Of a stretch of DNA of 64,000 nucleotides, positions 10,783-63,513 are shown piece after piece; within the stretch, counting starts at the first letter, position 1, and the number at the start of each line of letters is the position of its first letter. Under the pieces are notes generated by a model. The model made no database searches and was not told the origin of the DNA. It saw only the letters and a program-made list of their open reading frames with translations. The position numbers were made by a program, and so were the translations under genes. Origin of the DNA: a virus; IMG/VR virus record IMGVR_UViG_3300028840_006907, positions 256,001-320,000 of that record. One strand, given 5' to 3'.

Positions 10783-11141
10783 TAACTGAAATTGATGATG
10801 ATAGTAAAGACATAAAGATAAAATTAGGAAATTTATTTGAAAAATATGAAAATCTTTATCGGGAAGGGAATAGACAGTTTAGAACAGAGAGAATAGCTTC
10901 TGCTGGGTCAATGGATGGTCTGGAAGAATTTCGTCGTTTGATGCTTATTGTAAAAAGAAATAAGGATGTAGTGGCCTCGCTAATGCGGGGTATAGCTAAT
11001 TTTAGGTCTATTTCAAATTTTAAGTTTGTAGAAGAGGAAGTAGAAATTTCAAAACCGAAACCAAAGAAAACAAAGAAAGCTACTCCTGAAAAAGTGATCA
11101 TACCTATACCAATAGTAGCGGAGGAATTTAATGGCGAATAA
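10761..11141 (+). CDS. hypothetical protein
   Basis: 126-aa ORF overlapping the previous by 22 nt; K/E-rich C-terminus. Confidence 0.5.
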   Translation: MPDFNKLITEIDDDSKDIKIKLGNLFEKYENLYREGNRQFRTERIASAGSMDGLEEFRRLMLIVKRNKDVVASLMRGIANFRSISNFKFVEEEVEISKPKPKKTKKATPEKVIIPIPIVAEEFNGE

Positions 11142-14100: not shown

Positions 14101-14484
14101 ATTTTGGATATTCTTAATATTGATCCTGATGCGACCAGGGAAAAGATTGAACAAGATCTGTTTACTGTTAATGATAGTCTTTTCAATGAAATGATGAGAA
14201 ACCTTTATACAAATGTGGCTGCCCCACTTGTAGAGGAAACTAATGTTACTGAGAAATTGGCTAAATATCTTCATTTAGAAAAGACTGAAAAACCTGAGGC
14301 CACAGAAGGTGAATCTCGATTTAGTTCTGTTAATGGAAAGGATTACAGGAAAAAGCTTTCAAAAGTCATGAAATACTTTATTGATAATCCTGAAAAATTA
14401 AATTCCATTTTTGCAAAGAATGGACAGTTAAAACCTAAACAAGCGAGAAATAATCAATGCGTTGTCGCTCAATCCCGGAATTAA
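11131..14484 (+). CDS. portal protein interrupted by an intein
   Basis: 1117 aa; GGAGG RBS; exteins (aa 1-163 and 651-1117) total ~630 aa and carry a portal-like LFAGLGVTREMLTGEG motif; sits upstream of scaffold-like and capsid-like genes. Confidence 0.6.
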   Translation: MANKRIRVVTAQDNVPKRATRRKVVSRDTNPKVTNLTDNEKRARRIATTTSMGFGLRSASDIVNSSEANFYSPQLSTDFLEKPQNLRERRAFYRFFYNTNEIIGQSIDIHSTLPLSKLRLVPPKGRNKHQNNYVFKFFQKMCDEMKLFKTLIEITHEYFLFGNCLAKYAEVKTPFGYKEAKEIEVGDFLLTDKGRYRKVLKKCVRPSENVLKVKCWKDFRELPVSEEHPIEILKDDGFVFAQAEELSLNDYIRVTWPTEISDKEYVPFEFTDKYTKVENGYELKFEVLRTRNPHAFRARKELLSWLSSLSKPVIRTRKQLSEDFDVPLSTLNNVIYKLGKELDVKFHERIGASGFQKGSQVKWFPIEDIEVTDSYSIHKTLFLDAIDGIDINNDFAYLAGYWLGDGTLARDSQRGTWGRGLWQISVDQEFEGLNRIRSILHNFFGSGNVIEWNSGNLLYLKVISNPAFLEWWAENFGETSFGRNYKRIPEWFIKLPMEKLQNFLAGLIDSDGCISVSGENQKCITNISMASRNIMDSVRDITLKCGVVVNYNEGTEREVTLPQGDKCFSKKMYTVTASDEESCKILTQYATKSIPVDAQFSEMGRYWIRTDSGLAFKIKSIKTEEYNDLVYNFEVEEDHTYQVAGFSTHNCFIFAEEDDWKEGITTENIGQKKEEAKQRSQLLKDKFDIKDKNPLYKGWKKLLILPPDQVRVRKLPLTDEVAIEYMPDPETRKFLTSDIPIDPTDPTRRLDYSISNELREKVRQSGVIPLDTDPYTGSHVFHLARKKSQYEPLGVSIVERCINTLVLMDKLRQAQTSIASRHMTPMRVVWAEDLNSDDVDNLREQVDLALVDPDFSIIANYEIHWEEMGSNGRLLDVEAEMESSLNRLFAGLGVTREMLTGEGTYTGSRVSLEIMNTMYLLFREVLQDYIENTLFKPIAKKKGFIEYDEYGNETLLYPKISFTRLAIRDNEQYFDAAFQLYQKGSISIDLILDILNIDPDATREKIEQDLFTVNDSLFNEMMRNLYTNVAAPLVEETNVTEKLAKYLHLEKTEKPEATEGESRFSSVNGKDYRKKLSKVMKYFIDNPEKLNSIFAKNGQLKPKQARNNQCVVAQSRN
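11620..13080 (+). mobile_element. intein with LAGLIDADG homing-endonuclease domain (in-frame within portal gene)
   Basis: Begins with Cys after FGN, ends ...STHN followed by Cys; two LAGLIDADG motifs (LAGYWLGDGTL, LAGLIDSDGCI); 487 codons. Confidence 0.75.
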
Positions 14485-29865: not shown

Positions 29866-31947
29866 ATGAAACCAACAATTTCTCTTGTAATGGTAGTCTA
29901 TAATGTCAGTAAGACACTTGATAGATGTCTTAAAGGTTTTAGTCAGTGTTCGGATGAAATAGTAGTTGTTATAGATAATAAAACAACGGATAATAGTGAA
30001 GAAATTGCTCGAAAATATACCGATAAAATTTATCATTTCGATTGGATAGATGACTTTTCTGCCGCGAGAAATTTCTCTTTTGATAAGTGCACATGTGATT
30101 TTATCCACTGGTGCGATGGTGATGATTACATTCTTCCTGAAGATATAAAAATGATAAATGATCTAGATCTTACTGATTGGGATATGGTTGTTATGGATTA
30201 TGTCTATGCTCAGGATGAGTTTGGAAATGATAAATCGGTTGTCCCCAGAGAGAGAATTATAAGAAGATCTCTGGGATTGAAATGGGAGGGTGAAATACAT
30301 GAGTGTATTTTACTTCAAGGAAGAGTAAAACATACCCATATCCGAACTTATCATGATAAACAGCATGGGACTTCTGAACGTAATCTTGCCATATTAGAAA
30401 GAATTACTGAGAAAAATCCTAGTTCAAGAAATCTCTATTATCTCGGTAAAGAATATTATGATATGGGTAGAATTGATGAGGCAATTAATTATCTTTTGAA
30501 ATTTCTTGATTGTCCTGATGCCTTTTGGGAAAATGCTTATCAGGCTCATTGTAAATTGGCTATGGCTTATTTACAGAAAAAAGATGAGACTAGATTTAAA
30601 AAGCATATTTTTGAATCGATTAAGATGGAAGACCGTCAGGCAGAACCTATATATTTTCTCGCTTTATATTATATGAATAAAGGTCAATGGGATAGAGCTA
30701 TTCAGTGGTTTGAAGTATGTGCTCATATGGAGCATCCTGCAGATCTTCTAGGTGCTCATTTACCAGAATATTATACATGGTTACCTAATTTAAATCTTTG
30801 TGTTTGTTATAATGCTATTGGTGAAATTGAGAAAGCATACGAATGTAATGAAAAAGTTTTGAAATACCGTTCAAAAGATCCTCGTGCTGTCAGTAATAGA
30901 GAAATTCTTAAAAATGCTTTAAACTCAAAAAAGAAGAAAGAAGATGGTCAAGGTAAAAAACTGAATCTCGGTTGTGGTGGTAAACCTGTAGAGGGTTTTG
31001 TCAGTGTTGATATATTTAAAAGTCCCAAAATTGATGAAGTTTTTGATATGGGTGATATTCCGTATAAAGATAATACTATAGGAGCTATTTATAGTGAGCA
31101 TGCTTTAGAACATGTTTCTTTTGAACGAGTAGAAGAAGTTCTTAAAGAATGGTTTCGAGTTTTACAACCAGGGGGAGAACTTTTCCTTTATATGCCTGAT
31201 TTTGAAAATTGTTGTAAAAGTTATATAAATGCTCCGATTGACCATCCTCATTTTATGAATACTAAAGCTTGGTTTAAATATACTGTCTATGGAATTCAAA
31301 AGAGTCAGGGCGGGGAACCAGATGAAGCCCAGTTCCATCTTAGTGGCTTTTCAAAAGAGGAGATAAAAATAGTATTAGAACGGAATGGTTTTGTTATTGA
31401 TAAAGTAGAAAATTATGGTGGGGAAGGTCAGAAGCCTGATTATGGAACTCCTTCTATGGAAATCCATGCCCGAAAGCCTGAAGTAAAAAAGGAAATAATA
31501 CCTGTCAAGAAAGAGTCTGTGAAAGTGGTAGAGAAACCGAAACCTGTGAAAAAGGATTCGGGTATAAAGGTAGCCTGGATCGGGACTGAGAATTGGGTAG
31601 CTGCTCAGACAAGAATCAGAATATTAAATGTGCATCAATGGTTAAATGACCATGGTATAGAATCGGTGGTAACAAATAACTGCAAGGATGTAATCACGCA
31701 AGATTTTGATGTAGCCATTGTCGGAAAGAGATTTGATGAAGAAATTTATAATGGTGTCAAGGAATTGAAGAAGTCCAATAAAATAGTCTATTGCGATTTA
31801 TGTGAGGATGTTGTTAATTGGGCCTGGGTAAATGAGATAATGGTTGAATGTGATAAAGTTATCTGTTGTTCTAATACTCTTGCTGAGAGGGTGAAGCCAG
31901 TGAATCCTAATGTTGTAGTTATTGAAGATGCCTACGAGATGGTATAA
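29866..31947 (+). CDS. multidomain glycosyltransferase (GT2) / TPR-like / class I methyltransferase fusion
   Basis: 693 aa; N-terminal GT-A motifs (SLVMVVYN, DxD in WCDGDD); central SAM-methyltransferase motifs (LNLGCGGKP, LQPGGELFLYMPD). Confidence 0.65.
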   Translation: MKPTISLVMVVYNVSKTLDRCLKGFSQCSDEIVVVIDNKTTDNSEEIARKYTDKIYHFDWIDDFSAARNFSFDKCTCDFIHWCDGDDYILPEDIKMINDLDLTDWDMVVMDYVYAQDEFGNDKSVVPRERIIRRSLGLKWEGEIHECILLQGRVKHTHIRTYHDKQHGTSERNLAILERITEKNPSSRNLYYLGKEYYDMGRIDEAINYLLKFLDCPDAFWENAYQAHCKLAMAYLQKKDETRFKKHIFESIKMEDRQAEPIYFLALYYMNKGQWDRAIQWFEVCAHMEHPADLLGAHLPEYYTWLPNLNLCVCYNAIGEIEKAYECNEKVLKYRSKDPRAVSNREILKNALNSKKKKEDGQGKKLNLGCGGKPVEGFVSVDIFKSPKIDEVFDMGDIPYKDNTIGAIYSEHALEHVSFERVEEVLKEWFRVLQPGGELFLYMPDFENCCKSYINAPIDHPHFMNTKAWFKYTVYGIQKSQGGEPDEAQFHLSGFSKEEIKIVLERNGFVIDKVENYGGEGQKPDYGTPSMEIHARKPEVKKEIIPVKKESVKVVEKPKPVKKDSGIKVAWIGTENWVAAQTRIRILNVHQWLNDHGIESVVTNNCKDVITQDFDVAIVGKRFDEEIYNGVKELKKSNKIVYCDLCEDVVNWAWVNEIMVECDKVICCSNTLAERVKPVNPNVVVIEDAYEMV

Positions 31948-36335: not shown

Positions 36336-39320
36336 ATGGCAGAGCAATTAAAAGTTGGATGGGTCGGATATGGGGGTAATAGTTGGATGGCTGAGGATCT
36401 TCGGCCAGTTATAGAAAAGCTAGGAATGACTTTATTCACGATTCATGAACATGATAACGCAGATATTAAATGGGAAAAGGATAACTGGTTCAATCATTTA
36501 AAAAAAGCTGATATAGTTATAGCTCCAGCTAATTATAAAAAACAACCTGCAAAGAGTGCAAATCGATTAATACAATCAATGTCAATGGGTAAACCTGTCA
36601 TATGTTCTCCTTTACCTGCATATTTAGATGTGGCTAAAAAACATCCTGGTTCATTTCTTCTAGCTGATGTCCCGGAAGAATGGGAGGAATGTTTAAAATT
36701 GCTTAGAGATAATCCTTCTTTTCGTAAACAGATGAGTGAGAAGGCTCTAGAAGCTGTTGAAGATTTTTCGATAAATGTCATAGGAAATAAGTGGCTAGAA
36801 TTATTAGAGAAAGATGTACCAATAAAAAAAGATACTGAATCGAATAAAGTTCTTATTACAGATATAATCATACCTACATATAAAAATCTTCGTGGCTTGA
36901 AGTTATGTATTGAGAGTATTCTGGAGTGTACGTTAGTGCCGTACAATATTATAATTGTAAATAATGGAACTGATGAGGAATTGCATAACTATTGTTCTCA
37001 ATTGGTAAATGTAACTTACATAAAAAAAGACAGACTTAATTTTGCCCAAGCCATGAATGTCGGGATTAAAGCAGGTGATTCTGATTTAGTCGTTCTATTA
37101 AATGATGATGTTATTGTCAGTAAAGGATGGCTTATGAATTTGAAATATGCCTGTACTGAAGATGTGGGTGCAGTAGGACCTTTAAGTAATTGTGATAAAT
37201 CCTGGCTCCATAATCATGATATCAATATTGGTGGAGTAGAATTACTGCCTGGTTCAAATACTTTTGAACAAATTGAGCCTATTATTTCTCAGATATATAA
37301 TTATGAATCTCCTTTTTTAGAAGAACCTGAACGAAAATGGGTTGCATTTTATGCTACTTTAATTCCTCGGTCAGTAATAGAAGAAGTAGGTTTTTTAGAT
37401 GAGTCCTTTACAAATTCGGGAGAGGATGTTGATTATTGTAACAGGATTATGAAGTTAGGGTATAAAATAAAACAGACCTATAAAAGTTTTGTATTTCATT
37501 TCGGAGCTGTAAGTAGGAAATTACTGGAGCAGGAAGATAAGGGCACTTATCAGAAAGCTGATGAGGAGACTCAAGAATATTTAAAGATCAAGTATTCAAA
37601 ACCAACAGTAATAATCTATTCCGGTGCCAGTTGGGAGAGATGGAGTTATAAGTCTCTTGAACAGGGGGGTATTGGTGGTAGTGAAGTTTGGCAGATAAAT
37701 GTTTGTCGTGAGTTAAATAAATTGGGTTATAGAGTAATCAGTTTTAATGATTCCCCGGAAAAGGAAATGTGGGAAGATGGGATTCAATATCTTCATTATG
37801 GAGAATTTTCGAAATGGTGTGATGGTAACTATGCCGATTACGCAATTATAAGTAGAACAACCGATCCTTTACATCATCCTTTAAGAGCTGGAAAAATATT
37901 TATAATGGTTCACGATGTCTGGTTACTTTCTGCTAGAGATCAATTATTCCTTGATAAAGTAGATAAATTTTGTGTACTTAGTAAATGGCATTGGGATTTT
38001 TTTAAAGGTCACCATGGAATCCAAGATGAATCAAAATTGGCGTTGACTTCTAATGGGATAGATTTTAATCGTTATGATAACAAAAATATTGAAAGACATC
38101 CTTATAAAATGTTTTACAGTTCTTCCCCGGATCGAGGTCTTGATACACTCCTTTACCTATTTCCCTTTATTAAGGAAAAAATTCCAGAACTTGAACTCCA
38201 TATTTATTATGGATTTAACAATTGGGAAAAGGCAGTGAAGATGAGAAAAAACCAGATTGAGATAGATAGAATGAATAAAATAAAAAAGGATATGGAACAA
38301 CCTGGGGTATTTTATCATGGCCGAGTTGGTCAGAAGGAGCTAGCTGAAGCGCAATTAGAATGTTCTCTTTGGGCCTATCCGACGGATTTTGAAGAAGTTT
38401 TTTGCATCACTGCTATTGAGGCTCAAAGAGCCAGAATCCCTGTATTAGCAACGAATTACGCTGCTTTACAGACAACAGTAGGTGACTCAGGAATTCTAAT
38501 AGGAAATGGCATGAAAGGAGAATCTTATACACGAGATTATCGATTAAAATTTGTAGATGAGTGTATAAAAGTTTTAACAGATAAAGAATATAGAGAACAC
38601 TGGATTGAGAAAGGTTTAAAAAATACGGAGAAATATTCTTGGGAACAAGTGGCTAAAAATTGGAAGAAATTGTTTGAAAAAAGTGATCAAAAAGTAGAAG
38701 CAAAAATTATAGATGAAAAAGAATACAAGAAAGATCGAGTGCTAGTTCATGAAATGAAAATAAGTTCTAATTATATGCCAGATCCTCACAGCCATTTAAA
38801 TAATGAGAGAGATCGTTTTCATTATTATAAAACACTTAATGCTTTCGTTTCATCAAATTCATGTAGTGCATTGGATGTGGGTTGTTTTGATGGGTGGATT
38901 GATTTTCTTCTTATAGAACAAGGATTTAAATTAACTGGAGTTGAGTTGATGGAACCTCTTGTTCAAGCTGCTCGAAAATATGCAGAAGTTAAACAACTTG
39001 ATTATACAATTTATCAGGGTTTTTTTGAAGAGATTGAGATAGACCAGAAATTTGATTTAGTGATATGTTTGGAGACTTTGGAACATATTGATTTAAAACT
39101 TGTCCCTGAGTATATACAAAAAATGAAAAGTCTTGCTACAAAGGGTCTTTTCATATCACTCCCGGATCAGAAACATGAAGATAATACCCAGCATTTATGG
39201 ACACCTACTGAAAATTTAATAAGAAAAATGTGGGGTAATAAAAAGAATTTTTCATTGGAATACCATACTTATCAGGATTCAAATTTACCCGCTAATTGGT
39301 TAATTTATTTCGAAGTGTAG
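36336..39320 (+). CDS. giant multidomain glycosyltransferase (GT2 + GT4-like) / methyltransferase fusion
   Basis: 994 aa; GT-A segment (ITDIIIPTYKN...IIIVNNG), GT-B/GT4-like segment (EVFCITAIEAQRARIPVLAT), C-terminal class I methyltransferase motifs (ALDVGCFDGW, LETLEHI). Confidence 0.65.
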   Translation: MAEQLKVGWVGYGGNSWMAEDLRPVIEKLGMTLFTIHEHDNADIKWEKDNWFNHLKKADIVIAPANYKKQPAKSANRLIQSMSMGKPVICSPLPAYLDVAKKHPGSFLLADVPEEWEECLKLLRDNPSFRKQMSEKALEAVEDFSINVIGNKWLELLEKDVPIKKDTESNKVLITDIIIPTYKNLRGLKLCIESILECTLVPYNIIIVNNGTDEELHNYCSQLVNVTYIKKDRLNFAQAMNVGIKAGDSDLVVLLNDDVIVSKGWLMNLKYACTEDVGAVGPLSNCDKSWLHNHDINIGGVELLPGSNTFEQIEPIISQIYNYESPFLEEPERKWVAFYATLIPRSVIEEVGFLDESFTNSGEDVDYCNRIMKLGYKIKQTYKSFVFHFGAVSRKLLEQEDKGTYQKADEETQEYLKIKYSKPTVIIYSGASWERWSYKSLEQGGIGGSEVWQINVCRELNKLGYRVISFNDSPEKEMWEDGIQYLHYGEFSKWCDGNYADYAIISRTTDPLHHPLRAGKIFIMVHDVWLLSARDQLFLDKVDKFCVLSKWHWDFFKGHHGIQDESKLALTSNGIDFNRYDNKNIERHPYKMFYSSSPDRGLDTLLYLFPFIKEKIPELELHIYYGFNNWEKAVKMRKNQIEIDRMNKIKKDMEQPGVFYHGRVGQKELAEAQLECSLWAYPTDFEEVFCITAIEAQRARIPVLATNYAALQTTVGDSGILIGNGMKGESYTRDYRLKFVDECIKVLTDKEYREHWIEKGLKNTEKYSWEQVAKNWKKLFEKSDQKVEAKIIDEKEYKKDRVLVHEMKISSNYMPDPHSHLNNERDRFHYYKTLNAFVSSNSCSALDVGCFDGWIDFLLIEQGFKLTGVELMEPLVQAARKYAEVKQLDYTIYQGFFEEIEIDQKFDLVICLETLEHIDLKLVPEYIQKMKSLATKGLFISLPDQKHEDNTQHLWTPTENLIRKMWGNKKNFSLEYHTYQDSNLPANWLIYFEV

Positions 39321-53737: not shown

Positions 53738-54443
53738 ATCAATTTTCATATGTTCAGGAGGTCGATGTGGTACACATTGGGTTCGGCCTATTCTTGCTCA
53801 GCTTTTAGATTTACAAACTGGGTTTGATTGGAAAGGATATAATCCAAATAAAATTCCCTTTAAAACAGAACCTGGAGCTATTTGGAAAATAAAGATGGTA
53901 GAAAAGAGAGAGCCAGGAGGAAGGATTTATTCAGGGCATATGCCAATTACAGAACTTCTACCTATTATCAGTTTAGTAAATATAATAATTCTTATAAGAG
54001 ATCCTAGAGATATGTGTGTTTCGGCTGCATATTATACTCCAGAAAGAAGAGTATTAACTCAAGAAGAATTTGAATCTAAATTTAATAATTTATTAATACA
54101 AGGAAGCCCGAATCCTGATTTTCATGAATCTTATATAGAAAGTAAGAATAAAATACCTCATTTTTTATTAAAATATGAAGATATGATTCATGATGATTAT
54201 GGCTCAATAGTTAAATTTTTAAATAATTCAGGTTATAAATTTGAAGAAGAAAAATTAAAATATGTACTTGATAAAAACTCATTCAAGAATTTATCAGGTG
54301 GACGAGAAGCCGGTGAGGAGGATAATACCGCTTTTTATAGAAAAGGTATTGTGGGTGATTGGGTAAATTATCTCTCTAATGGTTTACTTGAACAATATAC
54401 CGATAGGCATAAAACTTTGTTGGAAGAATGGGGGTATATGTAA
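53730..54443 (+). CDS. sulfotransferase
   Basis: 237 aa; CSGGRCGTHW (5'-PSB-like) and LIRDPRDMCVSAAYY (3'-PB RDPxD..VS.Y). Confidence 0.55.
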   Translation: MNKSIFICSGGRCGTHWVRPILAQLLDLQTGFDWKGYNPNKIPFKTEPGAIWKIKMVEKREPGGRIYSGHMPITELLPIISLVNIIILIRDPRDMCVSAAYYTPERRVLTQEEFESKFNNLLIQGSPNPDFHESYIESKNKIPHFLLKYEDMIHDDYGSIVKFLNNSGYKFEEEKLKYVLDKNSFKNLSGGREAGEEDNTAFYRKGIVGDWVNYLSNGLLEQYTDRHKTLLEEWGYM

Positions 54444-54444
54444 T

Positions 54445-55116
54445 ATGGAAGATTATTTTGAACAAATGGTAACAGTTTTTAAAAAGTACTTTAAAGAGTA
54501 TTATCGTAATGTATTCACAAATCAATCAGTGGAAACCTGTACAGGTATTTATAATCTTTGTAAAAAAGAAAATCCAGATCAAGTAGTGGAAATGGGAACC
54601 AATCATGGGGCTTCTACTCTTTCTATAGTAAAAGCACTGACTGATTTAGGGAAAGATTTGTCTATTATTACTTCAATTGATTTAGACCACGAGAAATGGA
54701 AGGCAACATTTAATATACAAAAAGAATTGATTAAAAAGTATGATTTAAATTTAGGAAAAGTAAAATTAATAACTCAAGATTTTAATTCAGTAGATCCTGT
54801 AGAAATAATTGACCCTGAAAAGAAAGTATTTATTTTTTATGATATGCATGATCATCGAGGCCCATGGTCACAGAGACTACTTGATTTATGGGTACCTTTA
54901 GTTAAGAATGGTGTCTTCTCTATTCATGATGTAACTCCTGTAAGTGAATCCTTTGAAATAGTTCAGGATAAAATTTCCCCTCGAACAAAGATACAGTATA
55001 AGAGTGGGCAGTATTTTGCAGGTTTCAATGAATGTTTTCGAATAATAAAATGGGCAAATACAAATAACATAAATATAGAGATATTTCCAGGAGGAGTATA
55101 TTTCAGAAATGGCTAA
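54445..55116 (+). CDS. class I SAM-dependent methyltransferase-like protein
   Basis: Start at ATG just after upstream stop (track start 54379); VVEMGTNHGASTLSI motif. Confidence 0.5.
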   Translation: MEDYFEQMVTVFKKYFKEYYRNVFTNQSVETCTGIYNLCKKENPDQVVEMGTNHGASTLSIVKALTDLGKDLSIITSIDLDHEKWKATFNIQKELIKKYDLNLGKVKLITQDFNSVDPVEIIDPEKKVFIFYDMHDHRGPWSQRLLDLWVPLVKNGVFSIHDVTPVSESFEIVQDKISPRTKIQYKSGQYFAGFNECFRIIKWANTNNINIEIFPGGVYFRNG

Positions 55117-55795
55117 CATTTTTATTGGAAAAAATATGTCAAATATAAAAAATATTCCTGGTTTAAATAAAATAACAAAGATACATGATGTGGCTGATTA
55201 TGTGAGATTAGCTGATTTTGTCTATAAAACAATTTCCCATTCTATGGATAGTGGGATTGATTTAGATTATTCTGTTAATCAATTGTATTGGCAATTTGTG
55301 AATAAAAAGAGATTTGGATGGTGCTATATGCATGCTCTGTATTATCATCTTATAGTACAAGAATATGGTCGTGAATCTTTTGTTTATGATTATGGCTTAC
55401 CAGCGCCACAATTAACTCATAGTGTTGTTGTAGTAACTTTACGTGATGATAAGTATTTAATTGATCCTTATTTTAATCGTTATTATGTAACAGAAAAAGG
55501 GAATCCGTATACATTTCCTGACTTATTGGCTATGATAAAAACTGATCCAACAAAAATTTATAGTAAATATGGACCTGGTTTGAAAGAAGTTAAACAGGGA
55601 GATAAATATATAGAAACTTCTCCTGAACAATTTGAAAAAGGAGTATTGGAATCGTGGCGAGTAAATCAGAATTATGATAAAATAATGATGGAAAAATTTA
55701 ATAGCACAAATGCATTATTATTAATGCATTGTAAAGTACAAAAAGCTAAAGTATGTAAAAAAATAGATGGGACAAAGTATTTTGACTTTTTCTAA
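55109..55795 (+). CDS. hypothetical protein
   Basis: 228-aa ORF inside glycan island. Confidence 0.5.
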   Translation: MANIFIGKNMSNIKNIPGLNKITKIHDVADYVRLADFVYKTISHSMDSGIDLDYSVNQLYWQFVNKKRFGWCYMHALYYHLIVQEYGRESFVYDYGLPAPQLTHSVVVVTLRDDKYLIDPYFNRYYVTEKGNPYTFPDLLAMIKTDPTKIYSKYGPGLKEVKQGDKYIETSPEQFEKGVLESWRVNQNYDKIMMEKFNSTNALLLMHCKVQKAKVCKKIDGTKYFDFF

Positions 55796-56570
55796 TGTTA
55801 TATCCTTTATCAGTGCATTTAAAAAGTTTAAACCTCCTTATGGTATGATACAGCATTCTGCTATGTATTCATGGAATGCTAATAATATTGAAGTATTTGT
55901 TCCAGATAATGAGGTTGGAGTTAAAGATGCTTGTCAGAGTTATCCTAATATTAAATTAATCCCCGATGTTAAACGGGCTCGGGAAATGGGCTTTTCAAAT
56001 CAGTCTCCTATGGTAAAAGATCTGATTGCAAAAGCTCTACCTTTAATCAATACTCCGATGGTAGCTTTAATTAATTCAGACATTATAATTCAACCTGATT
56101 TTATAGAAAGAATAGAAAAAATACTGAAAGAATACGGTTTTGATATTTATATGGTGGGAACTCGATTTGATATTAAATTGGATATTCATATAAGTTCGGA
56201 AGAGACATATAAACAGGTATTGAGTTCAGAACGAAAAAGTTATGATGGCAGTACTTCTTCAGATATATTTATAGCTTCTAAATTTACCTGGAGGAAGATA
56301 GTTCATGAAATGCCTGATTTTATTCTAGGTCGGTATGGGTGGGATAATTGGTTACATATGATTGCAGAACTTAAAGGATATCGTAAATTTAATTGTACAG
56401 ATGCTTTGACTATTCTTCATTGTGAGCATGATCATAAGCATATAGTTCTTCAGGAAAAGGCTGAAAAACAAAGTGCTCCAAGTTCACAGCATAATTTAAA
56501 GTTATGGAATGAAGTAAAAAATGTTTATGGGACGACCAGGATAAATGCATGGCCAAAAATTGAAATATAA
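55767..56570 (+). CDS. hypothetical protein (possible glycosyltransferase)
   Basis: 267-aa ORF; weak GT-like ALINSDIIIQPDF; overlaps previous gene. Confidence 0.45.
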   Translation: MGQSILTFSNVISFISAFKKFKPPYGMIQHSAMYSWNANNIEVFVPDNEVGVKDACQSYPNIKLIPDVKRAREMGFSNQSPMVKDLIAKALPLINTPMVALINSDIIIQPDFIERIEKILKEYGFDIYMVGTRFDIKLDIHISSEETYKQVLSSERKSYDGSTSSDIFIASKFTWRKIVHEMPDFILGRYGWDNWLHMIAELKGYRKFNCTDALTILHCEHDHKHIVLQEKAEKQSAPSSQHNLKLWNEVKNVYGTTRINAWPKIEI

Positions 56571-56571
56571 T

Positions 56572-56610
56572 AGGGGTAAAGAAGTTTCTCTACCCCTACA
56601 TGCACATTTT
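56572..56610 (+). terminator. candidate terminator hairpin
   Basis: 7-bp stem AGGGGTA/TACCCCT with 12-nt loop, T-run shortly downstream; weak. Confidence 0.3.
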
Positions 56611-56661
56611 AACCACAATCCCATCTTATGGCTAAAAATATAATAAAAGGATGATACAAGA

Positions 56662-57480
56662 ATGAACCTTCTTCAGAGAGTAAAAAAATATTGGGATGAT
56701 AGACCCTGTAATATACGCCATTCAAAGGAACCCGTTGGAACCAGAAATTATTTCAATGAGGTTGAATATAAAAAATATAAAGTTGAACCGCATATATCAG
56801 GTTTCGCTGATTTTAATAAATGGAAGGATAAAAAGGTCCTTGAGATAGGCTGTGGGCTGGGCACTGAGACTATAAATTTTGCTAGAGCTGGTGCTAGGGT
56901 TGTCGCTGTGGATATGTCTGAGAAATCTTTGGAGCTGGCTAAGAAACGAGCGGAAGTTTTTGGCTTGTCCGATAAGATTACATTTTATCAGGGAAATGCT
57001 GAAGAACTTGATAAATTTATCCCAGCTCAGAAATTTGATCTTATCTGGTCTTTTGGTGTTATTCATCATACCCCGAATCCTGAGAACGTTATTGAATGTA
57101 TCAAGAAGTACCTGTCTCCAAGCAGTGAATTACGAATGATGGTTTATAATAAATTTAGTTGGAAAGTATTCTGGATCCTTTTTAAGTACGGGAAGTTTAA
57201 GTTTTGGGATATTGATAAATTCATAGCTCAAAATTCAGAAGCTCAGACCGGGTGCCCAATCACCTACACTTATACAAATAAATCAGTTCAAAAATTACTA
57301 AAAGGGTTTGTAATCGATAATATTAAAATTGAGCATATTTTTCCTTATAAAATTCGTGAATATAAGGAGAATAAATTCAAATTTATCTGGTATTTTAGAT
57401 ACCTGCCCAAATGGTTTTTTCATTGGTTAGAAAAGAGAATCGGTTGGCATATGTGCATAATCGCCAGATGGAGAATTTAG
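56662..57480 (+). CDS. class I SAM-dependent methyltransferase
   Basis: 272 aa; motif I VLEIGCGLGTET, VVAVDMS. Confidence 0.7.
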   Translation: MNLLQRVKKYWDDRPCNIRHSKEPVGTRNYFNEVEYKKYKVEPHISGFADFNKWKDKKVLEIGCGLGTETINFARAGARVVAVDMSEKSLELAKKRAEVFGLSDKITFYQGNAEELDKFIPAQKFDLIWSFGVIHHTPNPENVIECIKKYLSPSSELRMMVYNKFSWKVFWILFKYGKFKFWDIDKFIAQNSEAQTGCPITYTYTNKSVQKLLKGFVIDNIKIEHIFPYKIREYKENKFKFIWYFRYLPKWFFHWLEKRIGWHMCIIARWRI

Positions 57481-57601
57481 GGGTGGCCAGCCCCGCGTAG
57501 GCGGGGAAAAGGGATACGATAAGAAAAAATCTGCTCTGTGGAACAGCCCCACGAAAGTGGGGAATAATGCCACCCATTTTAAAAGATAGTATTGGGTGGT
57601 C
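57481..57601 (+). other. GC-rich multi-hairpin element between convergent genes
   Basis: Hairpins CCCCGC-GTAG-GCGGGG (57491-57506) and CCCCAC-GAAA-GTGGGG (57547-57562); GGGTGGC (57481-87) and GGGTGG (57594-99) both complementary to GCCACCC (57569-75). Confidence 0.5.
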
Positions 57602-57631
57602 TTTTAAATCAACTCTAAATTTTCCAGGAGT

Positions 57632-58096
57632 TTACAACCAGTCATCTTCTTTTCGGATAGATATTTTAGATAAAGTATCATTGTTAAGAAAAAGAGTTAC
57701 AATATAACGAACCCATTGATCATCATAATACCCAAATTCTTGTATTTCACTATTATCTGGAAATGAATCTACTATAACACTAGGTCCATAAACTTTCAGG
57801 ATTTTTCTTTTTGACATTCCAATCTTTAAATTTTGAAATTTACCTTCTTTAATTTCGATGTTATATAATCGGTGAGCAAAGATGTAACAAACCATATTCG
57901 GATAGTGCATATAAAGATCACTTTTAATAGTATCAATTTTTATAGGTTCTCCGAATTTTTCTATAACATCTTTAACAGTAAGGTCTTTTCGAAGATCGAA
58001 ATCAGGTCCGAATGGGAAGACACCGCAACTGTCGATTGAACGACTGAAGCATAAACTTACAAAAAGTATGATTGATATTAAAGTTTTCATATTCAC
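57632..58096 (-). CDS. secreted hypothetical protein (signal peptide)
   Basis: 154 aa; RBS GAGAGGAG; N-terminal MNMKTLISIILFVSLCFS. Confidence 0.6.
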   Translation of the reverse strand: MNMKTLISIILFVSLCFSRSIDSCGVFPFGPDFDLRKDLTVKDVIEKFGEPIKIDTIKSDLYMHYPNMVCYIFAHRLYNIEIKEGKFQNLKIGMSKRKILKVYGPSVIVDSFPDNSEIQEFGYYDDQWVRYIVTLFLNNDTLSKISIRKEDDWL

Positions 58097-58148
58097 TCCT
58101 CTCTATATATTATACCAGTCAAATAGCCATTTTATACCAAAAAAAATT

Positions 58149-58165
58149 GTAATAATCTTTTAATT
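58149..58165 (+). promoter_or_regulatory. conserved 17-nt motif, variant GTAATAATCTTTTAATT (copy 6)
   Basis: 30 nt upstream of ATG 58196. Confidence 0.4.
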
Positions 58166-58195
58166 GCGATGTAACGTAATGAAAAGGGGTAAATT

Positions 58196-58963
58196 ATGAT
58201 AGATGCGAAAAGAGTCGTTTTTTCATACTTAAATTTAAAAGTTGCCAAAGATATGACACCAGAAGAGGCAAAGAAAATAGTGGATAAAATGCCTCCAGGA
58301 AGATTTGATAAAATTAAAAAATTGTTACAGCCTTTTGCTAGATTGTTTAAAAAATCTTTTAATGTAAGAGATGCTGGTGTCCTTGATACTTTAGGAAAAT
58401 TAAGTAGGGCTAAGGGAATTCCTCTTGTTGAATTGTTAGCAGTAGCTTCTATCATGTTTGGTGCTACTGTTCCGTCTTATGCTGACACTGCTAAAGAAAA
58501 AGCTCCAATAGTTCAAGTAAAAGAGAAAAGGCCCATTTCTGAGGTAAGAGCGGATCTAGAAAAAGTTTTTGAATTACCAAAAGGTTTAATGACTCTTGTA
58601 AAAGTTACTCCTCAATTAGCAATAAATTTAAAAGGTATAGATGGATTTGTAGAGACCGTGGGTAAAAATCTCGATAAGAGTATAACTCCTGAAGTTTCAG
58701 TATTGTTAAATCAAGTCCCAGATAATCAATGGCCTGAATTATTGTCTGGTTTAGTAATGCAGAAAATTCAAGAAGATGATAAAGTTGATAAGAAATTTAA
58801 AAAGTTTATTAAACACCATAAAACTAGCCCTCAAAATATGAAAAAAGAGATAGCAAAAGTTGTCTCACAAGAGAAATCTGGCATTCAAAAATTTGTTGAT
58901 AAAGGCATGGCTGAGAAGGGCCTAGCTAAAAAAGCCCATGAAAGAGGCTATTTAATTTCATAA
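58196..58963 (+). CDS. hypothetical protein
   Basis: 255 aa; RBS AAAAGGGG; preceded by motif copy 6; preferred over antisense ORF 58132-58455. Confidence 0.55.
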   Translation: MIDAKRVVFSYLNLKVAKDMTPEEAKKIVDKMPPGRFDKIKKLLQPFARLFKKSFNVRDAGVLDTLGKLSRAKGIPLVELLAVASIMFGATVPSYADTAKEKAPIVQVKEKRPISEVRADLEKVFELPKGLMTLVKVTPQLAINLKGIDGFVETVGKNLDKSITPEVSVLLNQVPDNQWPELLSGLVMQKIQEDDKVDKKFKKFIKHHKTSPQNMKKEIAKVVSQEKSGIQKFVDKGMAEKGLAKKAHERGYLIS

Positions 58964-59496
58964 ATAGCTGTCTTTGTAGTTTTCATACCGAAAAGTTTAA
59001 ATGGATATTTCCCTAAAAACAATTCTATTGCATCTTGGTATACGTATTCTACAGGATTTTGAAGAATTATAATTCCTCCTTTTCTCACTTTTGGAACAGC
59101 CTCTTTGATACAAGAAGATCTTGATCTACCATTTATGAAAATGATATCAAAAGAATGATCAGCAAAGTTATTTATATAATTTACATAGTCTCTAAAATTC
59201 TTATATAAATAAGCCGGTACAGTACTTCCGAAGCTCTCATGGCTGTAAGGAAAGGGTTTAGGGTCATCGATAGGTTCTATTAATTCATAAGTAAAATTTC
59301 CTTTATTAGGTCCTATCTGTTTTTTTAATGTCTCATATGTTTCTCTGTCATGTTCCACTGATACTACAGCTTTAACAGTTCTTCTGAAATAAATAGTAGA
59401 ATCTCCTGATCCATATTCAAAAGTGATCATGTCATATTCAATGAAACTTTTTAACCAGTCTATAGCTTCAGGTTCAATTGGGGGGTAAACTTCCAT
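58948..59496 (-). CDS. class I methyltransferase-fold protein
   Basis: 182 aa; FEYGSGDSTIYF, DIIFINGR, KGGIIIL motifs. Confidence 0.45.
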   Translation of the reverse strand: MEVYPPIEPEAIDWLKSFIEYDMITFEYGSGDSTIYFRRTVKAVVSVEHDRETYETLKKQIGPNKGNFTYELIEPIDDPKPFPYSHESFGSTVPAYLYKNFRDYVNYINNFADHSFDIIFINGRSRSSCIKEAVPKVRKGGIIILQNPVEYVYQDAIELFLGKYPFKLFGMKTTKTAIYEIK

Positions 59497-59856
59497 TTAT
59501 TCTTCCTCTATTCTTTTTAGTCCAATATTTCCAAGTTCTTCATCATTAAGTTTTTCTAATTTTATATGTTCATTCATGATAATTACATAAAATGGAATAT
59601 CAATAGATGATTGAAAGATGTCAATTAAATCTTGTGCTTGTGCCTCGGTAACAGGCATTTTAGGTCTTATAATGACAAGATCATCTTCTTTCAATTGTAA
59701 CTTTTCTAATTGGTAATTTATAACGATGTTTTCTACATATTGTTCAGCTACCTCTTTTGGATTGTGGCTCAAAGTATATCCGCATTTGTCACATTTGCCT
59801 GTATAAAAATCGATAGCTTCATCTCTACATTCAGGGCATTCTATTTTTTTATCCAT
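59497..59856 (-). CDS. zinc-ribbon-containing hypothetical protein
   Basis: 119 aa; CPECRDEAIDFYTGKCDKCG at N-terminus. Confidence 0.5.
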   Translation of the reverse strand: MDKKIECPECRDEAIDFYTGKCDKCGYTLSHNPKEVAEQYVENIVINYQLEKLQLKEDDLVIIRPKMPVTEAQAQDLIDIFQSSIDIPFYVIIMNEHIKLEKLNDEELGNIGLKRIEEE

Positions 59857-59858
59857 TT

Positions 59859-60485
59859 CTAAAATTTCCTTTCTACAGTATCTTTGAATTTAATCATTTT
59901 CCCAGTTCCGGTTCCTATGTGAGGAAAAGGAGTTTCAAATTCATATTTAATGACACATTTTGGCCAAGTCATGGTTGATTTTCCTCTTCTTTGTACTTTT
60001 GTTGTTGTCACACTTCTATTGTTATCTTCTATAATGAATGTGCAAGGTAAATCCCAACCATCTACATAACGAACAGCTTCATAAAAATGTCCTTCATCTT
60101 CAGCTCCATCTCCAATAAAACACCATACTTTATTTTTGCTTTTCTCCATTTTTAAAGATAAGGCTATTCCGGTAGCTATAGAAGCGGTTCCTGCTAGTAT
60201 AGAAGATGACAGGAAATTTAATTTTTTATCGAAGACATGCATTGAATCCCCGTTTAATAATATCTTTTCAAGATCTTTTTCATTTCCTCCTGCTAGTAAA
60301 TAATGGTAGTGGGATCGATGGGTAGAAAGAATATAATCTCCTTCATTAACTTTTTTGAATATTTCAATAATTTGATCTTCATTTCCTCCATTTAAATATA
60401 TCAAATAAGGAAGAAGCCCTTCTTCAAAGAGTTCAATTACTCTCTTTTCAAAAGAGATAAGTTCATTTTTTGTTTTATTAAACAT
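59859..60485 (-). CDS. transketolase-like N-terminal (TPP-binding) subunit
   Basis: 208 aa; GGAG RBS; TPP motif WCFIGDGAEDEG...IIEDNNRSV. Confidence 0.6.
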   Translation of the reverse strand: MFNKTKNELISFEKRVIELFEEGLLPYLIYLNGGNEDQIIEIFKKVNEGDYILSTHRSHYHYLLAGGNEKDLEKILLNGDSMHVFDKKLNFLSSSILAGTASIATGIALSLKMEKSKNKVWCFIGDGAEDEGHFYEAVRYVDGWDLPCTFIIEDNNRSVTTTKVQRRGKSTMTWPKCVIKYEFETPFPHIGTGTGKMIKFKDTVERKF

Positions 60486-61527
60486 AGTTATCTCCGTAAC
60501 ATTCTATTATTTGATGTATTATCTTATTTTTTGCCTCATTAGCACATTGATGTGTACAAGATATGTCAGGTCTAAAATTTTGAAAGAAATTTTCTGTATC
60601 TCGTGAGAACCAGGTTTCACTGAATTTTTTATTTTTAATGGATCCTACCAATCCTTTTGGAGAATAAGCCATATTGTGACAAGTATAGATATTGAGATCA
60701 GCTCCAATTACAGGTACTATTAACGAGAAGAAACATTTTTTGTATTCTCTTTTATTTACCATAGGAGATATATTGTAACTGTCAAAAACATCAATACCTT
60801 CAATTTGACTAGCATATATAGTATCCAATTGTTCTCTTACTTGATATTTAATGGTATTGTGATAGTTATAAAAATCAGGAACCCACACCGGGGAGAATCG
60901 TATATTATCTACACCCATTTTATGTACAAGTTGAAAAGCTTCTATTAAGAATTCACAATTTTCTTTTGTTATGATATAGTTGACCCCGAGATTACAGGAA
61001 CTTTCTTTTTTTGAAAAGTTAAGAACATTTTCTACTATTTGATGAAACATTTTAGGGGATGCTTTTCTCGATTCGATAAAACTTTTTTCATCCCAGTAAT
61101 CGATAGAAACTCTAATCCATTTAGCATGAGTCATAATATCAGCTATGTTTCCACTGAGGAATTGACCATTTGTTAATATGGAAAGATCTATTTTACACTC
61201 AAGAGTTTTTTCAAGTATTTTCTCAATACCTTTATGAATTAATGGCTCTCCTCCACCAGAATAGGTAATAGCTTTAACACCAATGTCTTGAAGATCCTCT
61301 AATATTTCCATCATCTTTTCTGTGGGAATTTCATCCACTCTTTTCATATCGTCATGCATTTTAGAAAAGGAATAGTTGTACACACAGAAGTAACAATTAT
61401 GACAACATCTATTGGTAGGTTTTATTCTGACATAGATAGGAGAAGTTACAACATCATTTCGAAACGATTTCAATTTATCAGGAAACCACACTATTTTATA
61501 GTTGTTGTATTTATTATTCATTGTCAT
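60478..61527 (-). CDS. radical SAM enzyme
   Basis: Start at ATG after GAGG (track TTG start at 61545); CX3CX2C in PTNRCCHNCYFC; lies between the two transketolase-like halves. Confidence 0.7.
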   Translation of the reverse strand: MTMNNKYNNYKIVWFPDKLKSFRNDVVTSPIYVRIKPTNRCCHNCYFCVYNYSFSKMHDDMKRVDEIPTEKMMEILEDLQDIGVKAITYSGGGEPLIHKGIEKILEKTLECKIDLSILTNGQFLSGNIADIMTHAKWIRVSIDYWDEKSFIESRKASPKMFHQIVENVLNFSKKESSCNLGVNYIITKENCEFLIEAFQLVHKMGVDNIRFSPVWVPDFYNYHNTIKYQVREQLDTIYASQIEGIDVFDSYNISPMVNKREYKKCFFSLIVPVIGADLNIYTCHNMAYSPKGLVGSIKNKKFSETWFSRDTENFFQNFRPDISCTHQCANEAKNKIIHQIIECYGDNYV

Positions 61528-62038
61528 AGAAACCTCGTGTTTCAATTAGCATCATAGAGGTTTCCCATTTTGCTGCCTCTTTATAATGGTATAAAATTTC
61601 TTCTGAGTTATTTAATCTGATAACAGGAAAATCTACCATTTTCGATACAGCTTCAGTATGGTCCTGGACATGAGTTATGCAACTATATAAAGGTTTTTCT
61701 TTTTTCCCAATGACAACTCTTATAATCACTTTAGGATCGTAATCACCGTTTGACATAACTTTTATTTTGTCTAAATGATTTACTATTGAATCTAGTGCAT
61801 TTAAAACAAAATCAAATCGTTCAAAATAAACAATTGGTTTGTATCCTCTGATGCTCATTCCTATGGCCATTCCTGCCATTAAGTTCTCGGCTACAGGTGT
61901 TTCGATTAATTGAGATTCCGGAACATCAATTAAGGTATTAGCTGCTCTAGTGTATTTTGTATTATATCCTATAAATACTGTTTTTTCTTGTTTAGCCAAT
62001 TCATTCATCGAGTATTTAAGAGCATCTATATATCGCAT
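61514..62038 (-). CDS. transketolase-like C-terminal (pyrimidine-binding) subunit
   Basis: 174 aa; ETPVAENLMAGMAIGMSIRGYKPIVYFERFDF. Confidence 0.6.
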   Translation of the reverse strand: MRYIDALKYSMNELAKQEKTVFIGYNTKYTRAANTLIDVPESQLIETPVAENLMAGMAIGMSIRGYKPIVYFERFDFVLNALDSIVNHLDKIKVMSNGDYDPKVIIRVVIGKKEKPLYSCITHVQDHTEAVSKMVDFPVIRLNNSEEILYHYKEAAKWETSMMLIETRGFYDNE

Positions 62039-62656
62039 CTATTTAACCTTTTCTTTTGGTGTAATAATCAGATAACCTTGGTCTCGGTAATCTTTTGTGA
62101 CATCGTGTGTCTCTTTAAACATTTCAACAATGTAATTAGTACCATTTAAACCGTATTTAGGTCTGAAGTATCTGTAACGTGCTATTAAATTACCTGTTTC
62201 AAATGGCCCATCTTCATGATGATTTAGATCATCAATAATCATGACGTCTTTACCTTTTCGATATTTTTTTATCATTTCGAGTTCTAAGTTTAAAGGAAAT
62301 TTCAATCTTTTTGGAAGATCTTCATCATAGTGATGTCCATCTATCTGAAAGTCAGCTCCGGGAAAATGAGCATCTAAAAAGAAAAGAACTACATCAGTTT
62401 CTTTAACTTCATTTTTAAATAGTGATTCGAGTCCTACTGGAGATTCACAATTCAAAAAATTAATTCGTGGGTCTACAATATTTTTTGAGGTTTCATTGAA
62501 AAGTTTTTCGATAATTTCAATAGAGTGTATTTTTTCAAAAGGAAATCCTAATGCATATGTTACTCCTTCTCCTTTTCCCGTACCTGTCTCTATCATAATA
62601 TTGCATCCGTAATCTCTGATATACTCATCAAGTTTATGCTTGTTTAGAGTTCCCAT
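62039..62656 (-). CDS. class I methyltransferase-fold protein
   Basis: 205 aa; glycine-rich motif I-like IETGTGKGEGV. Confidence 0.45.
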   Translation of the reverse strand: MGTLNKHKLDEYIRDYGCNIMIETGTGKGEGVTYALGFPFEKIHSIEIIEKLFNETSKNIVDPRINFLNCESPVGLESLFKNEVKETDVVLFFLDAHFPGADFQIDGHHYDEDLPKRLKFPLNLELEMIKKYRKGKDVMIIDDLNHHEDGPFETGNLIARYRYFRPKYGLNGTNYIVEMFKETHDVTKDYRDQGYLIITPKEKVK

Positions 62657-63513
62657 TATATTTCCCTTTGGTTAAAGTTTGGTGTATAAAATTGTTGAAT
62701 CGCTTTATAATCATGTGGTAAAAAGTATTTCTTTATCCATGTATATGTAGGCATTCTATTGTAGATATTTTGATCATGAGTTTTTATGAATAATTTATGA
62801 GGAGGAAGTACTTTACAACATAAAATAGCACAGAAAGAATCGCACCCAACATAATAACCTGCGTATTTTGACAGGGCTATTATTGAAGTTAAAGGAATGT
62901 CTTTTGGGGCTATGAAATGATTTAAAGTAGGTGCAACAGGTGTGTCTGAAATAATGAGAACCTTTAAGCCAGTCTTTATTGACAGGTTATTTATAAATTC
63001 CCAATCATCATTATTGATAACCGCTATATCACTTCGTGGTCTTGAAGAGGTTGGATAGTGCATTAAGATATATTTAAAAGGTTCTATTTTTAATCCATTC
63101 CAATCAATATCATCAACACTAGCGCTCATTAAAAATGATGACCCTTGAAAAGTTCTATTGGTATCCATTATCATTGGTACCATGTCTACGGGACGTACAT
63201 CATCTTCAGGTTTTATATTAAGTAATTCTTTTCCTATTGTGTAATCAGGTTCGATGTCAGATCTAAAATGCCAGAAGGTATCTTTTATCGGGCTAGATTG
63301 AAAGGTCCTTCTCATATTTTTTCTACCTACTTCTTCATCTATGAAGTGATGCTTTTTTACTCTGTAATAGATATTATGATCAATTATAGGAGCTATGCAT
63401 TTCCCAAATCTGCATGGCCAGTATATTTCAGTTATAGATTCTCTTTCTTTTTGAGTCATTAAAGCATCGATACACATCATATCTCCGATGCCGACAGAGA
63501 AGTAAATTTTCAT
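62656..63513 (-). CDS. hypothetical protein
   Basis: 285 aa; GGAG RBS; start overlaps upstream gene. Confidence 0.55.
   Translation of the reverse strand: MKIYFSVGIGDMMCIDALMTQKERESITEIYWPCRFGKCIAPIIDHNIYYRVKKHHFIDEEVGRKNMRRTFQSSPIKDTFWHFRSDIEPDYTIGKELLNIKPEDDVRPVDMVPMIMDTNRTFQGSSFLMSASVDDIDWNGLKIEPFKYILMHYPTSSRPRSDIAVINNDDWEFINNLSIKTGLKVLIISDTPVAPTLNHFIAPKDIPLTSIIALSKYAGYYVGCDSFCAILCCKVLPPHKLFIKTHDQNIYNRMPTYTWIKKYFLPHDYKAIQQFYTPNFNQREI

Follow-up and report, generated by a model that had tools for sequence, protein, structure and literature searches.

The 64,000 nucleotides analysed here, called the window in the following, are positions 256,001 to 320,000 of the IMG/VR virus record IMGVR_UViG_3300028840_006907. 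[quoted passage not shown] Each of the two hairpins resembles, together with its flanks, a type I-E CRISPR repeat, and this resemblance had been missed in a preliminary description of the site. The hairpins, the adjacent stop codon and the complementary G- and C-rich copies around them had been located correctly there, as had the convergent gene junction.

Conservation and strand of the element

On the minus strand, the element of the window reads GGGUGGC-AUUAUU-(CCCCAC UUUC GUGGGG)-CUGUUCCA-27 nt-CUUUU-(CCCCGC CUAC GCGGGG)-CUGGCCAC, with the stem-loops in brackets. Its GC content, measured per 100 nt, was 0.46–0.52 compared with 0.22–0.37 in the flanks, in line with the preliminary description. 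The hairpin pattern CCCCRCNNNNGYGGGG occurs twice in the 64 kb, while 0.03 occurrences were expected, and a general hairpin scan of the window found no further intergenic hairpin of this kind. Elements with the same architecture are present at the homologous junction in contigs of diverged phages, L054/L055 and L068 (L-numbers are labels of compared contigs or loci), which makes three lineages together with the window. In L054, the element reads GGGAUGG-UAUUUUC-(CCCUGC CUUA GCGGGG)-AUGACCCU-25 nt-AUUUC-(CCCCGU UUUUC ACGGGG)-CUGUUCCU and in L068 GGGGUGG-UAC-(UCCUGC AAUAA GCGGGA)-AUAUUCCG-32 nt-AUUUU-(UCCCGC GUUA GCGGGA)-CUGUCCCU.

All six units of the three members have a 6-bp stem and a loop of 4–5 nt. 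Standard pairs were counted at 36 of 36 stem positions on the minus strand, but at 34 of 36 on the opposite strand, where two U·G pairs become C·A. Across the six units, compensatory changes were found at stem pairs 1, 5 and 6. The pairs were counted by script; a MAFFT alignment of the six units misplaced the loop-length gap at the 5′ end. The preliminary description had proposed covariation in homologous contigs as a check, and both hairpins of L054/L055 and L068 indeed carry compensatory changes. The U·G wobbles and the matches to repeat models described below place the RNA on the minus strand. The motif GGGNUGG 5′ of unit 1 is kept as GGGAUGG in L054 and GGGGUGG in L068. The 25–32 nt between the hairpins, by comparison, have no similarity among the three members.

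Similarity of the hairpin units to type I-E repeats

The 29-nt unit on the minus strand consists of a U-rich 5′ flank, a CCCCRC/GYGGGG stem, a loop of 4–5 nt and the tail NURNNCC. Its similarity to real repeats was assessed with two covariance models. Model R1 was built from 11 real repeats (alignment A2), namely five published type I-E consensus repeats, the repeat of a Pusillimonas array and those of five arrays on IMG/VR contigs. As some of these seeds had been retrieved with the window's own hairpin pattern, model R2 was built from the five published consensus repeats only (alignment A3; supplement of the Racr paper cited below). The filters were switched off in the searches, and R2 was run over all 128 kb, i.e. 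both strands of the window.

With R1, unit 2 scored 28.3 bits (E 1.2e-7) and unit 1 20.9 bits (E 5.7e-5), both full-length (positions 1–29) and on the minus strand, and there were no other strong matches in the window. With R2, unit 1 (19.7 bits, E 3e-5) and unit 2 (18.7 bits, E 8.2e-5) were the two best matches of the window, again over the full length and on the minus strand. On the plus strand, the match was confined to the bare hairpin, with 15.4 (R1) and 14.6 bits (R2) for unit 2 and 11.9 (R1) and 12.2 bits (R2) for unit 1. In L054 and L068, too, each model matched the two units on the equivalent strand, and neither matched in the relatives lacking the element. All six units align over their full length.

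Within the tail, U2, R3 and C6 are kept in all six units and C7 in five of them; these are invariant or purine-only positions in the five published repeats of A3. A weight matrix of the flanks only, derived from published repeats, placed the six units in the top 1.4–5.8% of the positions in the window, with antisense p values of 0.08–0.75. The flank signal is modest, yet it is consistent and directional, and its direction agrees with the independent evidence of the wobble pairs on the strand.

The units are built like a type I-E repeat, which has about 29 nt and a GC stem of 6–7 bp with a tetraloop at positions 6–21. They share these positions, the tetraloop and the tail bases U2, purine 3, C6 and C7 with the canonical repeat of E. 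coli and Salmonella, GAGTTCCCCGCGCCAGCGGGGATAAACCG, a sequence confirmed in published papers, and the 6-bp stem of unit 2 (CCCCGC/GCGGGG) is identical to the stem of that repeat. Unit 2 of L068 has 19 contiguous nt, loop included, in common with the array repeat GTTTTTCCCGCGTTAGCGGGGGTTGAAG of Pusillimonas sp. T2, which recurs with a 61-nt period. The genome of this bacterium has a GC content of 54% and the tail of its repeat differs; therefore, this repeat is related to the mimicked type, and the bacterium is not the host. The same 19-mer, TTTTTCCCGCGTTAGCGGG, was found once each in a Chitinophaga genome and a metagenome-assembled genome of Piscirickettsiaceae (L170:1936-1954, L171:4429-4447) with no surrounding array. 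These are chance or solitary copies and calibrate how frequent such a 19-mer is in 596 Gb.

Spacing and spacers

The units are direct repeats, and the period from hairpin to hairpin is 56 nt in the window, 54 nt in L054 and 62 nt in L068, with spacers of 27, 25 and 32 nt. The canonical type I-E period of 61 nt was seen in true arrays of L033, L047, L099 and L166. Conserved repeat-like units that flank unrelated spacers are the pattern of CRISPR; structured non-coding RNAs and terminators do not usually have such a layout.

Arrays with shorter periods were observed in IMG/VR as well. The contigs L003, L018, L025, L027, L040, L009/L012/L021 and L032 carry heterogeneous arrays similar to type I-E with periods of 44–52 nt, mixed CCCCGC/CCCCAC stems and varied loops, and these resemble the published phage Cracr arrays. 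The 437-kb record IMGVR_UViG_3300021978_000001 (L025, L033, L047) has many arrays of the I-E type with repeats that vary within an array.

Distribution at homologous junctions

Homologues of both flanking proteins, a methyltransferase and a 154-aa protein, were found in a large protein collection at 57–75% identity, and the contigs of ten of these homologues were examined. The 154-aa protein has ten homologues in that collection, all on related phage contigs; no relative of it was found in IMG/VR or the JGI metagenomes. Likewise, there was no close relative of this phage in IMG/VR, INPHARED (BLAST) or GTDB. The relatives of the methyltransferase in IMG/VR are at most 56% identical, and the next gene follows directly there. 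A coding anchor at the C-terminus of the methyltransferase retrieved one short JGI contig (of the L064 type, lacking the element) and none in IMG/VR or the GTDB genomes.

While the element is present in L054/L055 and L068, the junctions of L056, L173, L062, L063, L064, L057 and L061 are empty or different. Those of L056 (21 nt) and L173 (18 nt) are empty sites, that of L062 has 37 nt, and those of L063 (238 nt) and of L064–L066 and L169 (97 nt) contain sequence unrelated to the element. Being present or absent among related junctions, the element is an accessory insert in a variable hotspot, and it is clearly homologous where present. In IMG/VR, the DNA pattern of the two hairpins was found only in GC-rich contigs, some of them with real type I-E or short-period arrays, and no relative was among them; a pattern of leader plus hairpin gave 100 chance matches and no copy of the element.

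Other junctions have contents of their own. L057 (3472–4323) contains two small open reading frames (ORFs) of 54 and 83 aa and L061 (1408–1646) one of 73 aa. L062 and L063 (1757–1994) have the motif ATAGGGCACGG in common just past the methyltransferase stop, and a similar motif, GAACGGCACAGG, occurs in L064 (3317–3413). These alternative contents may be other accessory or anti-defence cargo.

Alternative explanations

The element could be a structured non-coding RNA or an element of a 3′ untranslated region (UTR) that is unrelated to CRISPR, in which an enclosing helix and two clamp hairpins on the minus strand stabilise the end of a transcript or bind another protein. This is considered unlikely. 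The 138-nt segment was more stable than shuffled sequences on both strands (z = −3.56 for plus and −4.22 for minus) in a folding check of the kind suggested in the preliminary description, and the fold of the window element is significantly stable overall (z from −3.6 to −4.4). In the window sequence, the minimum-energy fold contains the 7-bp enclosing helix, which is formally kept throughout the three members, both of its sides having changed, and the motif GGGNUGG is conserved. However, the whole element of L054 folds no better than shuffled sequences (z = −0.45 and −1.4). L068, in its minimum-energy fold, pairs the G-rich motif with the spacer and does not use the enclosing helix. Three of the seven helix pairs are G·U in both L054 and L068, for which reason the helix forms on the minus strand only, and a G-rich strand can pair with almost any tail rich in C and U. 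Moreover, the central 25–32 nt are not conserved, no Rfam family matches, and the directional, CRISPR-repeat-like flanks of both hairpins would be left unexplained. The enclosing helix is weakly supported.

These results also bear on what the preliminary description had proposed. A structured RNA was borne out in so far as the element is conserved with compensatory changes, but not as a 3′ UTR of the methyltransferase gene, which is on the plus strand whereas the evidence is for the minus strand. Of the two mutually exclusive pairings, the complementarity exists, as GGGTGGC (57481–57487) and GGGTGG (57594–57599) are each complementary to GCCACCC (57569–57575) on the plus strand. The GGGTGG/CCACCC copy at 57594–57599 has no counterpart in L054 or L068, though, and the alternative long-range pairing is therefore probably incidental.

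Hairpins that terminate or protect the transcripts of the 32-kb plus-strand operon and of the 154-aa gene are an explanation with a similarly small chance. The site lies between convergent genes. On the minus strand, a third hairpin (57546..57531) followed by AUUUUUUCUU fits the pattern of an intrinsic terminator, and on the plus strand the CCACCC/GGGUGG pairing precedes UCUUUU, TCTTTTAAA being found directly after the second GGGTGG copy. Yet neither of the two GC hairpins has a 3′ U-tract on either strand, and the U-run on the minus strand precedes the stem; apart from the weak third hairpin there is no intrinsic terminator, and the view that this is not a simple terminator pair was confirmed. 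The third hairpin, which the preliminary description had overlooked, arises where the tail of unit 1 pairs with the first part of the spacer, with a G·U pair on the minus strand that is a C·A mismatch on the plus strand. It is missing from L054 and L068 and thus specific to the window, and the GGGTGG copy is missing there, too. Furthermore, the junctions of 18–21 nt in L056 and L173 work without a hairpin, no other operon end in the window has such hairpins, and the terminator count of the region (8 compared with 5.2 ± 2.6 in shuffled sequences) is not raised.

An insert that is small, mobile, GC-rich and palindromic and serves no function for the phage, such as a miniature inverted-repeat transposable element, a repetitive extragenic palindrome or a double hairpin, is highly improbable: it would fit the presence or absence at an otherwise conserved junction and the 6-bp direct repeat GGGTGG at the left edge (57481–57486) and again 113 nt to the right (57594–57599), but the element is a single copy in 64 kb and lacks terminal inverted repeats, neither L054 nor L068 has the direct repeat, patterns derived from the hairpin pair and the leader motif found no copy in IMG/VR, and compensatory changes and wobble asymmetry indicate selection on RNA.

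Several other identities were rejected. ARAGORN detected neither a tRNA nor a transfer-messenger RNA at the element, and an Rfam scan, which had been recommended at the outset, gave no family at the gathering score and only noise at E values up to 10. A hammerhead or other ribozyme was discarded, as CUGAUGA occurs upstream in L054 alone, is not conserved, and no ribozyme family of Rfam matches. A small protein was considered for the 60-aa minus-strand ORF at 57395–57577, with its AUG within AUGGGUGGC; the equivalent frame of L068 stops after 22 codons, and the likeness of the peptide to that of L054 arises from different hairpins. If TAG were read as sense, the methyltransferase would gain only 14 codons; with the standard bacterial code, the ORFs of the window are intact.

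Points against a repeat mimic

A number of observations weigh against the interpretation as a repeat mimic. The score in the models is mostly that of a generic GC hairpin, to which the flanks add about 5–13 bits, and the flank-only p values per unit are modest (about 0.01–0.06). Type I-E repeats have a conserved 8-nt 3′ tail, which becomes the 5′ handle, of the AU[A/G]NNCCG type. The first base of the tail is C in four of six units, whereas it is A or G in the eleven real repeats of A2. The terminal G is missing (G8 occurs in one of six units), and the 5′ flank is U-rich in place of the GUGUU of the canonical repeat. Rfam CRISPR-DR28 matched unit 2 on the minus strand with the hairpin only and with 13.2 bits, compared with a gathering score of 35, so that the element stays below the threshold of the curated family. 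The identity between the two units of the window is only about 70%, the periods range from 54 to 62 nt compared with 61 nt in a canonical array, there are only two units, and no cas or defence match was found in the neighbouring ORFs; the element is accordingly not a bona fide CRISPR array.

Concerning its surroundings, neither Pfam nor PADLOC revealed a cas or known defence gene in 16 ORFs of the window, including every ORF from 54379 to 63513, and another eight, from the structural and glycan regions, had no cas domain in a Pfam scan. The neighbours of the element are a lipoprotein-like gene and sugar-modifying enzymes, with no recognisable acr gene. No sigma-70-like promoter reached the scan threshold in the leader-like stretch at 57576..57631, and the third hairpin with its U-tract, which lies inside the spacer of the window, could end transcription ahead of unit 2. 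No protospacer was found for the three spacers in IMG/VR, with N allowed at every sixth position, or in the window with up to three mismatches. Finally, type I-E systems are uncommon in lineages with low GC content.

Comparison with known viral CRISPR mimics

The layout of the element, i.e. two degenerate units around one short spacer-like segment in a virus and outside a cas locus, is that of the Cracrs. These viral crRNA-like RNAs mimic the cellular crRNA-like RNAs (crlRNAs) CreR and CreA; in phage Cracr arrays, degenerate repeats surround short spacers of 21 and 24 nt for type I-E, and their RNAs, once loaded into the Cascade of the host, compete with crRNAs and repress the promoters of cas or toxin genes (Liu et al., bioRxiv 10.1101/2024.10.29.618823). 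Further marks of a Cracr are partial complementarity of its spacer to a host cas or creT promoter, over at least nine bp proximal to the protospacer-adjacent motif, and maturation that depends on Cas. Like them, the element resides in a phage, no cas gene was found in the scanned ORFs of the window, and the repeats are heterogeneous, their hairpin being kept by compensatory changes. The spacers are shorter than canonical in two of the three members (27 and 25 nt), compared with 21–24 nt in the published type I-E Cracrs, while that of L068 has the full length of 32 nt. Unlike for Cracrs, no cas or creT promoter target can be named, the likeness to any real repeat is moderate, and a 5′ G-rich motif that is able to pair with the tail of the last repeat is not described for them.

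Racrs are single repeat mimics, and those of type I-E were validated experimentally as anti-CRISPRs (Camara-Wilpert et al. 2023, PMC10651486). They share with the element that a phage encodes a mimic of a class 1 repeat hairpin away from cas genes, and type I-E Racrs work as decoys. However, a Racr consists of one unit, its similarity to a known repeat is typically 90% or more, and acr genes are often its neighbours, whereas the element has two units at CRISPR-like spacing, a lower similarity, no acr neighbour and no promoter at threshold; it is thus not a Racr in the published sense.

Mini-arrays of viruses, which have repeats identical to those of the host, target rival viruses (Medvedeva et al. 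2019, PMC6858448; review PMC11656645). The element resembles them as a virus-borne sequence of repeat, spacer and repeat with a predicted dependence on host Cas proteins. It differs from them in its two repeats, which are unlike each other, and in that no protospacer was found, while their spacers match related viruses. A decoy or regulatory role is favoured over an inter-viral mini-array because the repeats differ from each other, short spacers are present in two of the three members, and neither IMG/VR nor the window yielded a protospacer.

Proposed mechanism

If the element is a repeat mimic, a minus-strand transcript would arise by read-through from the 154-aa gene, its probable source, or from a weak promoter in the AT-rich leader. 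A Cas6e-type endoribonuclease of the host, which would have to possess a matching CRISPR system, could then bind both hairpins and cut at the 3′ base of each. The product would be a crRNA-like RNA of ∼56 nt (57546 to 57491) in which a handle of 8 nt (CUGUUCCA) is followed by the 27-nt spacer and a hairpin of 21 nt, and its spacer would be about one Cas7 step (6 nt) below normal length. This RNA may load into host Cascade. It could act either as a decoy that titrates Cas proteins in the manner of a Racr, or as a guide with a short spacer that binds a target without cleavage like a Cracr or crlRNA, for example on a cas promoter.

One may also combine the features into a more specific and distinctly improbable scenario. 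The G-rich 5′ motif would pair with the handle of the last repeat and yield a closed, exonuclease-resistant decoy that displays two hairpins of the Cas6e type. Such a purpose-built decoy would be distinct from solitary Racrs and linear Cracr arrays, and its origin would lie in a lineage of huge AT-rich phages facing a CRISPR type that is uncatalogued for hosts of this kind; or else the hairpins would be read by a phage-encoded Cas6-like protein elsewhere in the 469-kb genome.

Genomic setting

The genome around the window is that of a phage and AT-rich, with a GC content of about 33%. The flanking proteins of the element also occur on a 469,617-bp contig, and the phage is therefore a huge phage. 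The methyltransferase gene is the last gene of a long glycan-modification operon on the plus strand, and its stop codon TAG (57478–57480) touches the element. The 154-aa gene is the upstream neighbour of the element on the minus strand and convergent with the methyltransferase gene; its product had no match in PHROG or PADLOC. The features of the element and its two neighbours are listed in Table 1.

Table 1. Coordinates in the window of the junction element, its parts and the adjoining genes.
Feature	Position	Strand	Sequence or remark
Class I S-adenosylmethionine (SAM) methyltransferase	56662-57480	+	Pfam Methyltransf_31/25/11, E 1e-19 to 1e-23
3′ half of enclosing helix	57481..57487	-	GCCACCC; overlap with the tail of unit 2, next to the stop codon of the methyltransferase gene
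Repeat-like unit 2 (psiR2)	57483..57511	-	CUUUU CCCCGC CUAC GCGGGG CUGGCCAC
GC hairpin of unit 2	57491-57506		CCCCGC-GTAG-GCGGGG (plus-strand letters)
Spacer-like segment (psiS)	57512..57538	-	27 nt, CAGAGCAGAUUUUUUCUUAUCGUAUCC; between the two model matches
Third hairpin, terminator-like	57531..57546	-	CUGUUC-CACA-GAGCAG, then AUUUUUUCUU; terminator scan and predicted folds
Repeat-like unit 1 (psiR1)	57539..57567	-	UUAUU CCCCAC UUUC GUGGGG CUGUUCCA
GC hairpin of unit 1	57547-57562		CCCCAC-GAAA-GTGGGG (plus-strand letters)
G-rich motif, 5′ half of enclosing helix	57569..57575	-	GGGUGGC; just 5′ of unit 1
AT-rich leader-like stretch	57576..57631	-	Bounded by the stop of the 154-aa gene and by the G-rich motif; includes CCACCC a second time (57594-57599)
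154-aa signal-peptide or lipoprotein-like gene	57632-58096	-	ORF list

The plus-strand run that ends at the element is uninterrupted over ∼32 kb (25368–57480). The ORFs sampled from it encode glycosyltransferases, SAM methyltransferases, sugar-nucleotide enzymes and a UDP-glucose/GDP-mannose dehydrogenase, and a glycan-modification island of this size is unusual for a phage. Large fusion proteins are found in it at 29866–31947 (GT2, TPR and methyltransferase) and at 36336–39320 (GT2, GT1 and methyltransferase). A gene similar to a thiamine pyrophosphate-dependent E1 component and a radical SAM gene follow on the minus strand just past the glycan run. In the 91-nt gap upstream of the methyltransferase gene, a hairpin of 13 pairs, GTAGGGGTAGAGAAACTTCTTTACCCCTAT, lies at 56570–56599 (minus strand); the terminator scan picked it up on the minus strand, within the plus-strand operon.

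The window also codes for structural proteins, namely an intein-interrupted portal protein, a prohead protease and a major head protein. The portal-like protein (11131–14484, plus strand) has PHROG portal matches at residues 697–1009 and, at residues of about 200–650, an intein that carries a homing-endonuclease domain of the LAGLIDADG type (Pfam Intein_splicing, LAGLIDADG_3 and Hom_end). Two adjoining plus-strand genes, 656–2878 and 2882–5173, encode proteins of ∼750 aa with Laminin_G_3 or concanavalin-like lectin domains, the former with an additional weak, sub-threshold match to a glycine-rich domain. They are probably receptor-binding or fibre proteins.

Implications

Should the interpretation as a repeat mimic be wrong, the element would still be a conserved, strand-specific structured RNA with no known family. 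If it is right, the element would be an unannotated RNA-level anti-CRISPR or an element for the hijacking of CRISPR in a huge phage. The use of such RNAs by phages to hijack or blunt the CRISPR immunity of their hosts is already known; the carrier is what is unusual here, and repeat mimicry would be extended to AT-rich jumbo phages. The compact family of three members would then provide natural compensatory variants for testing what Cas6e and Cascade require of a repeat, and the site where the methyltransferase and lipoprotein-like genes meet would stand out as an accessory and possibly anti-defence hotspot that is worth mining in related phages.

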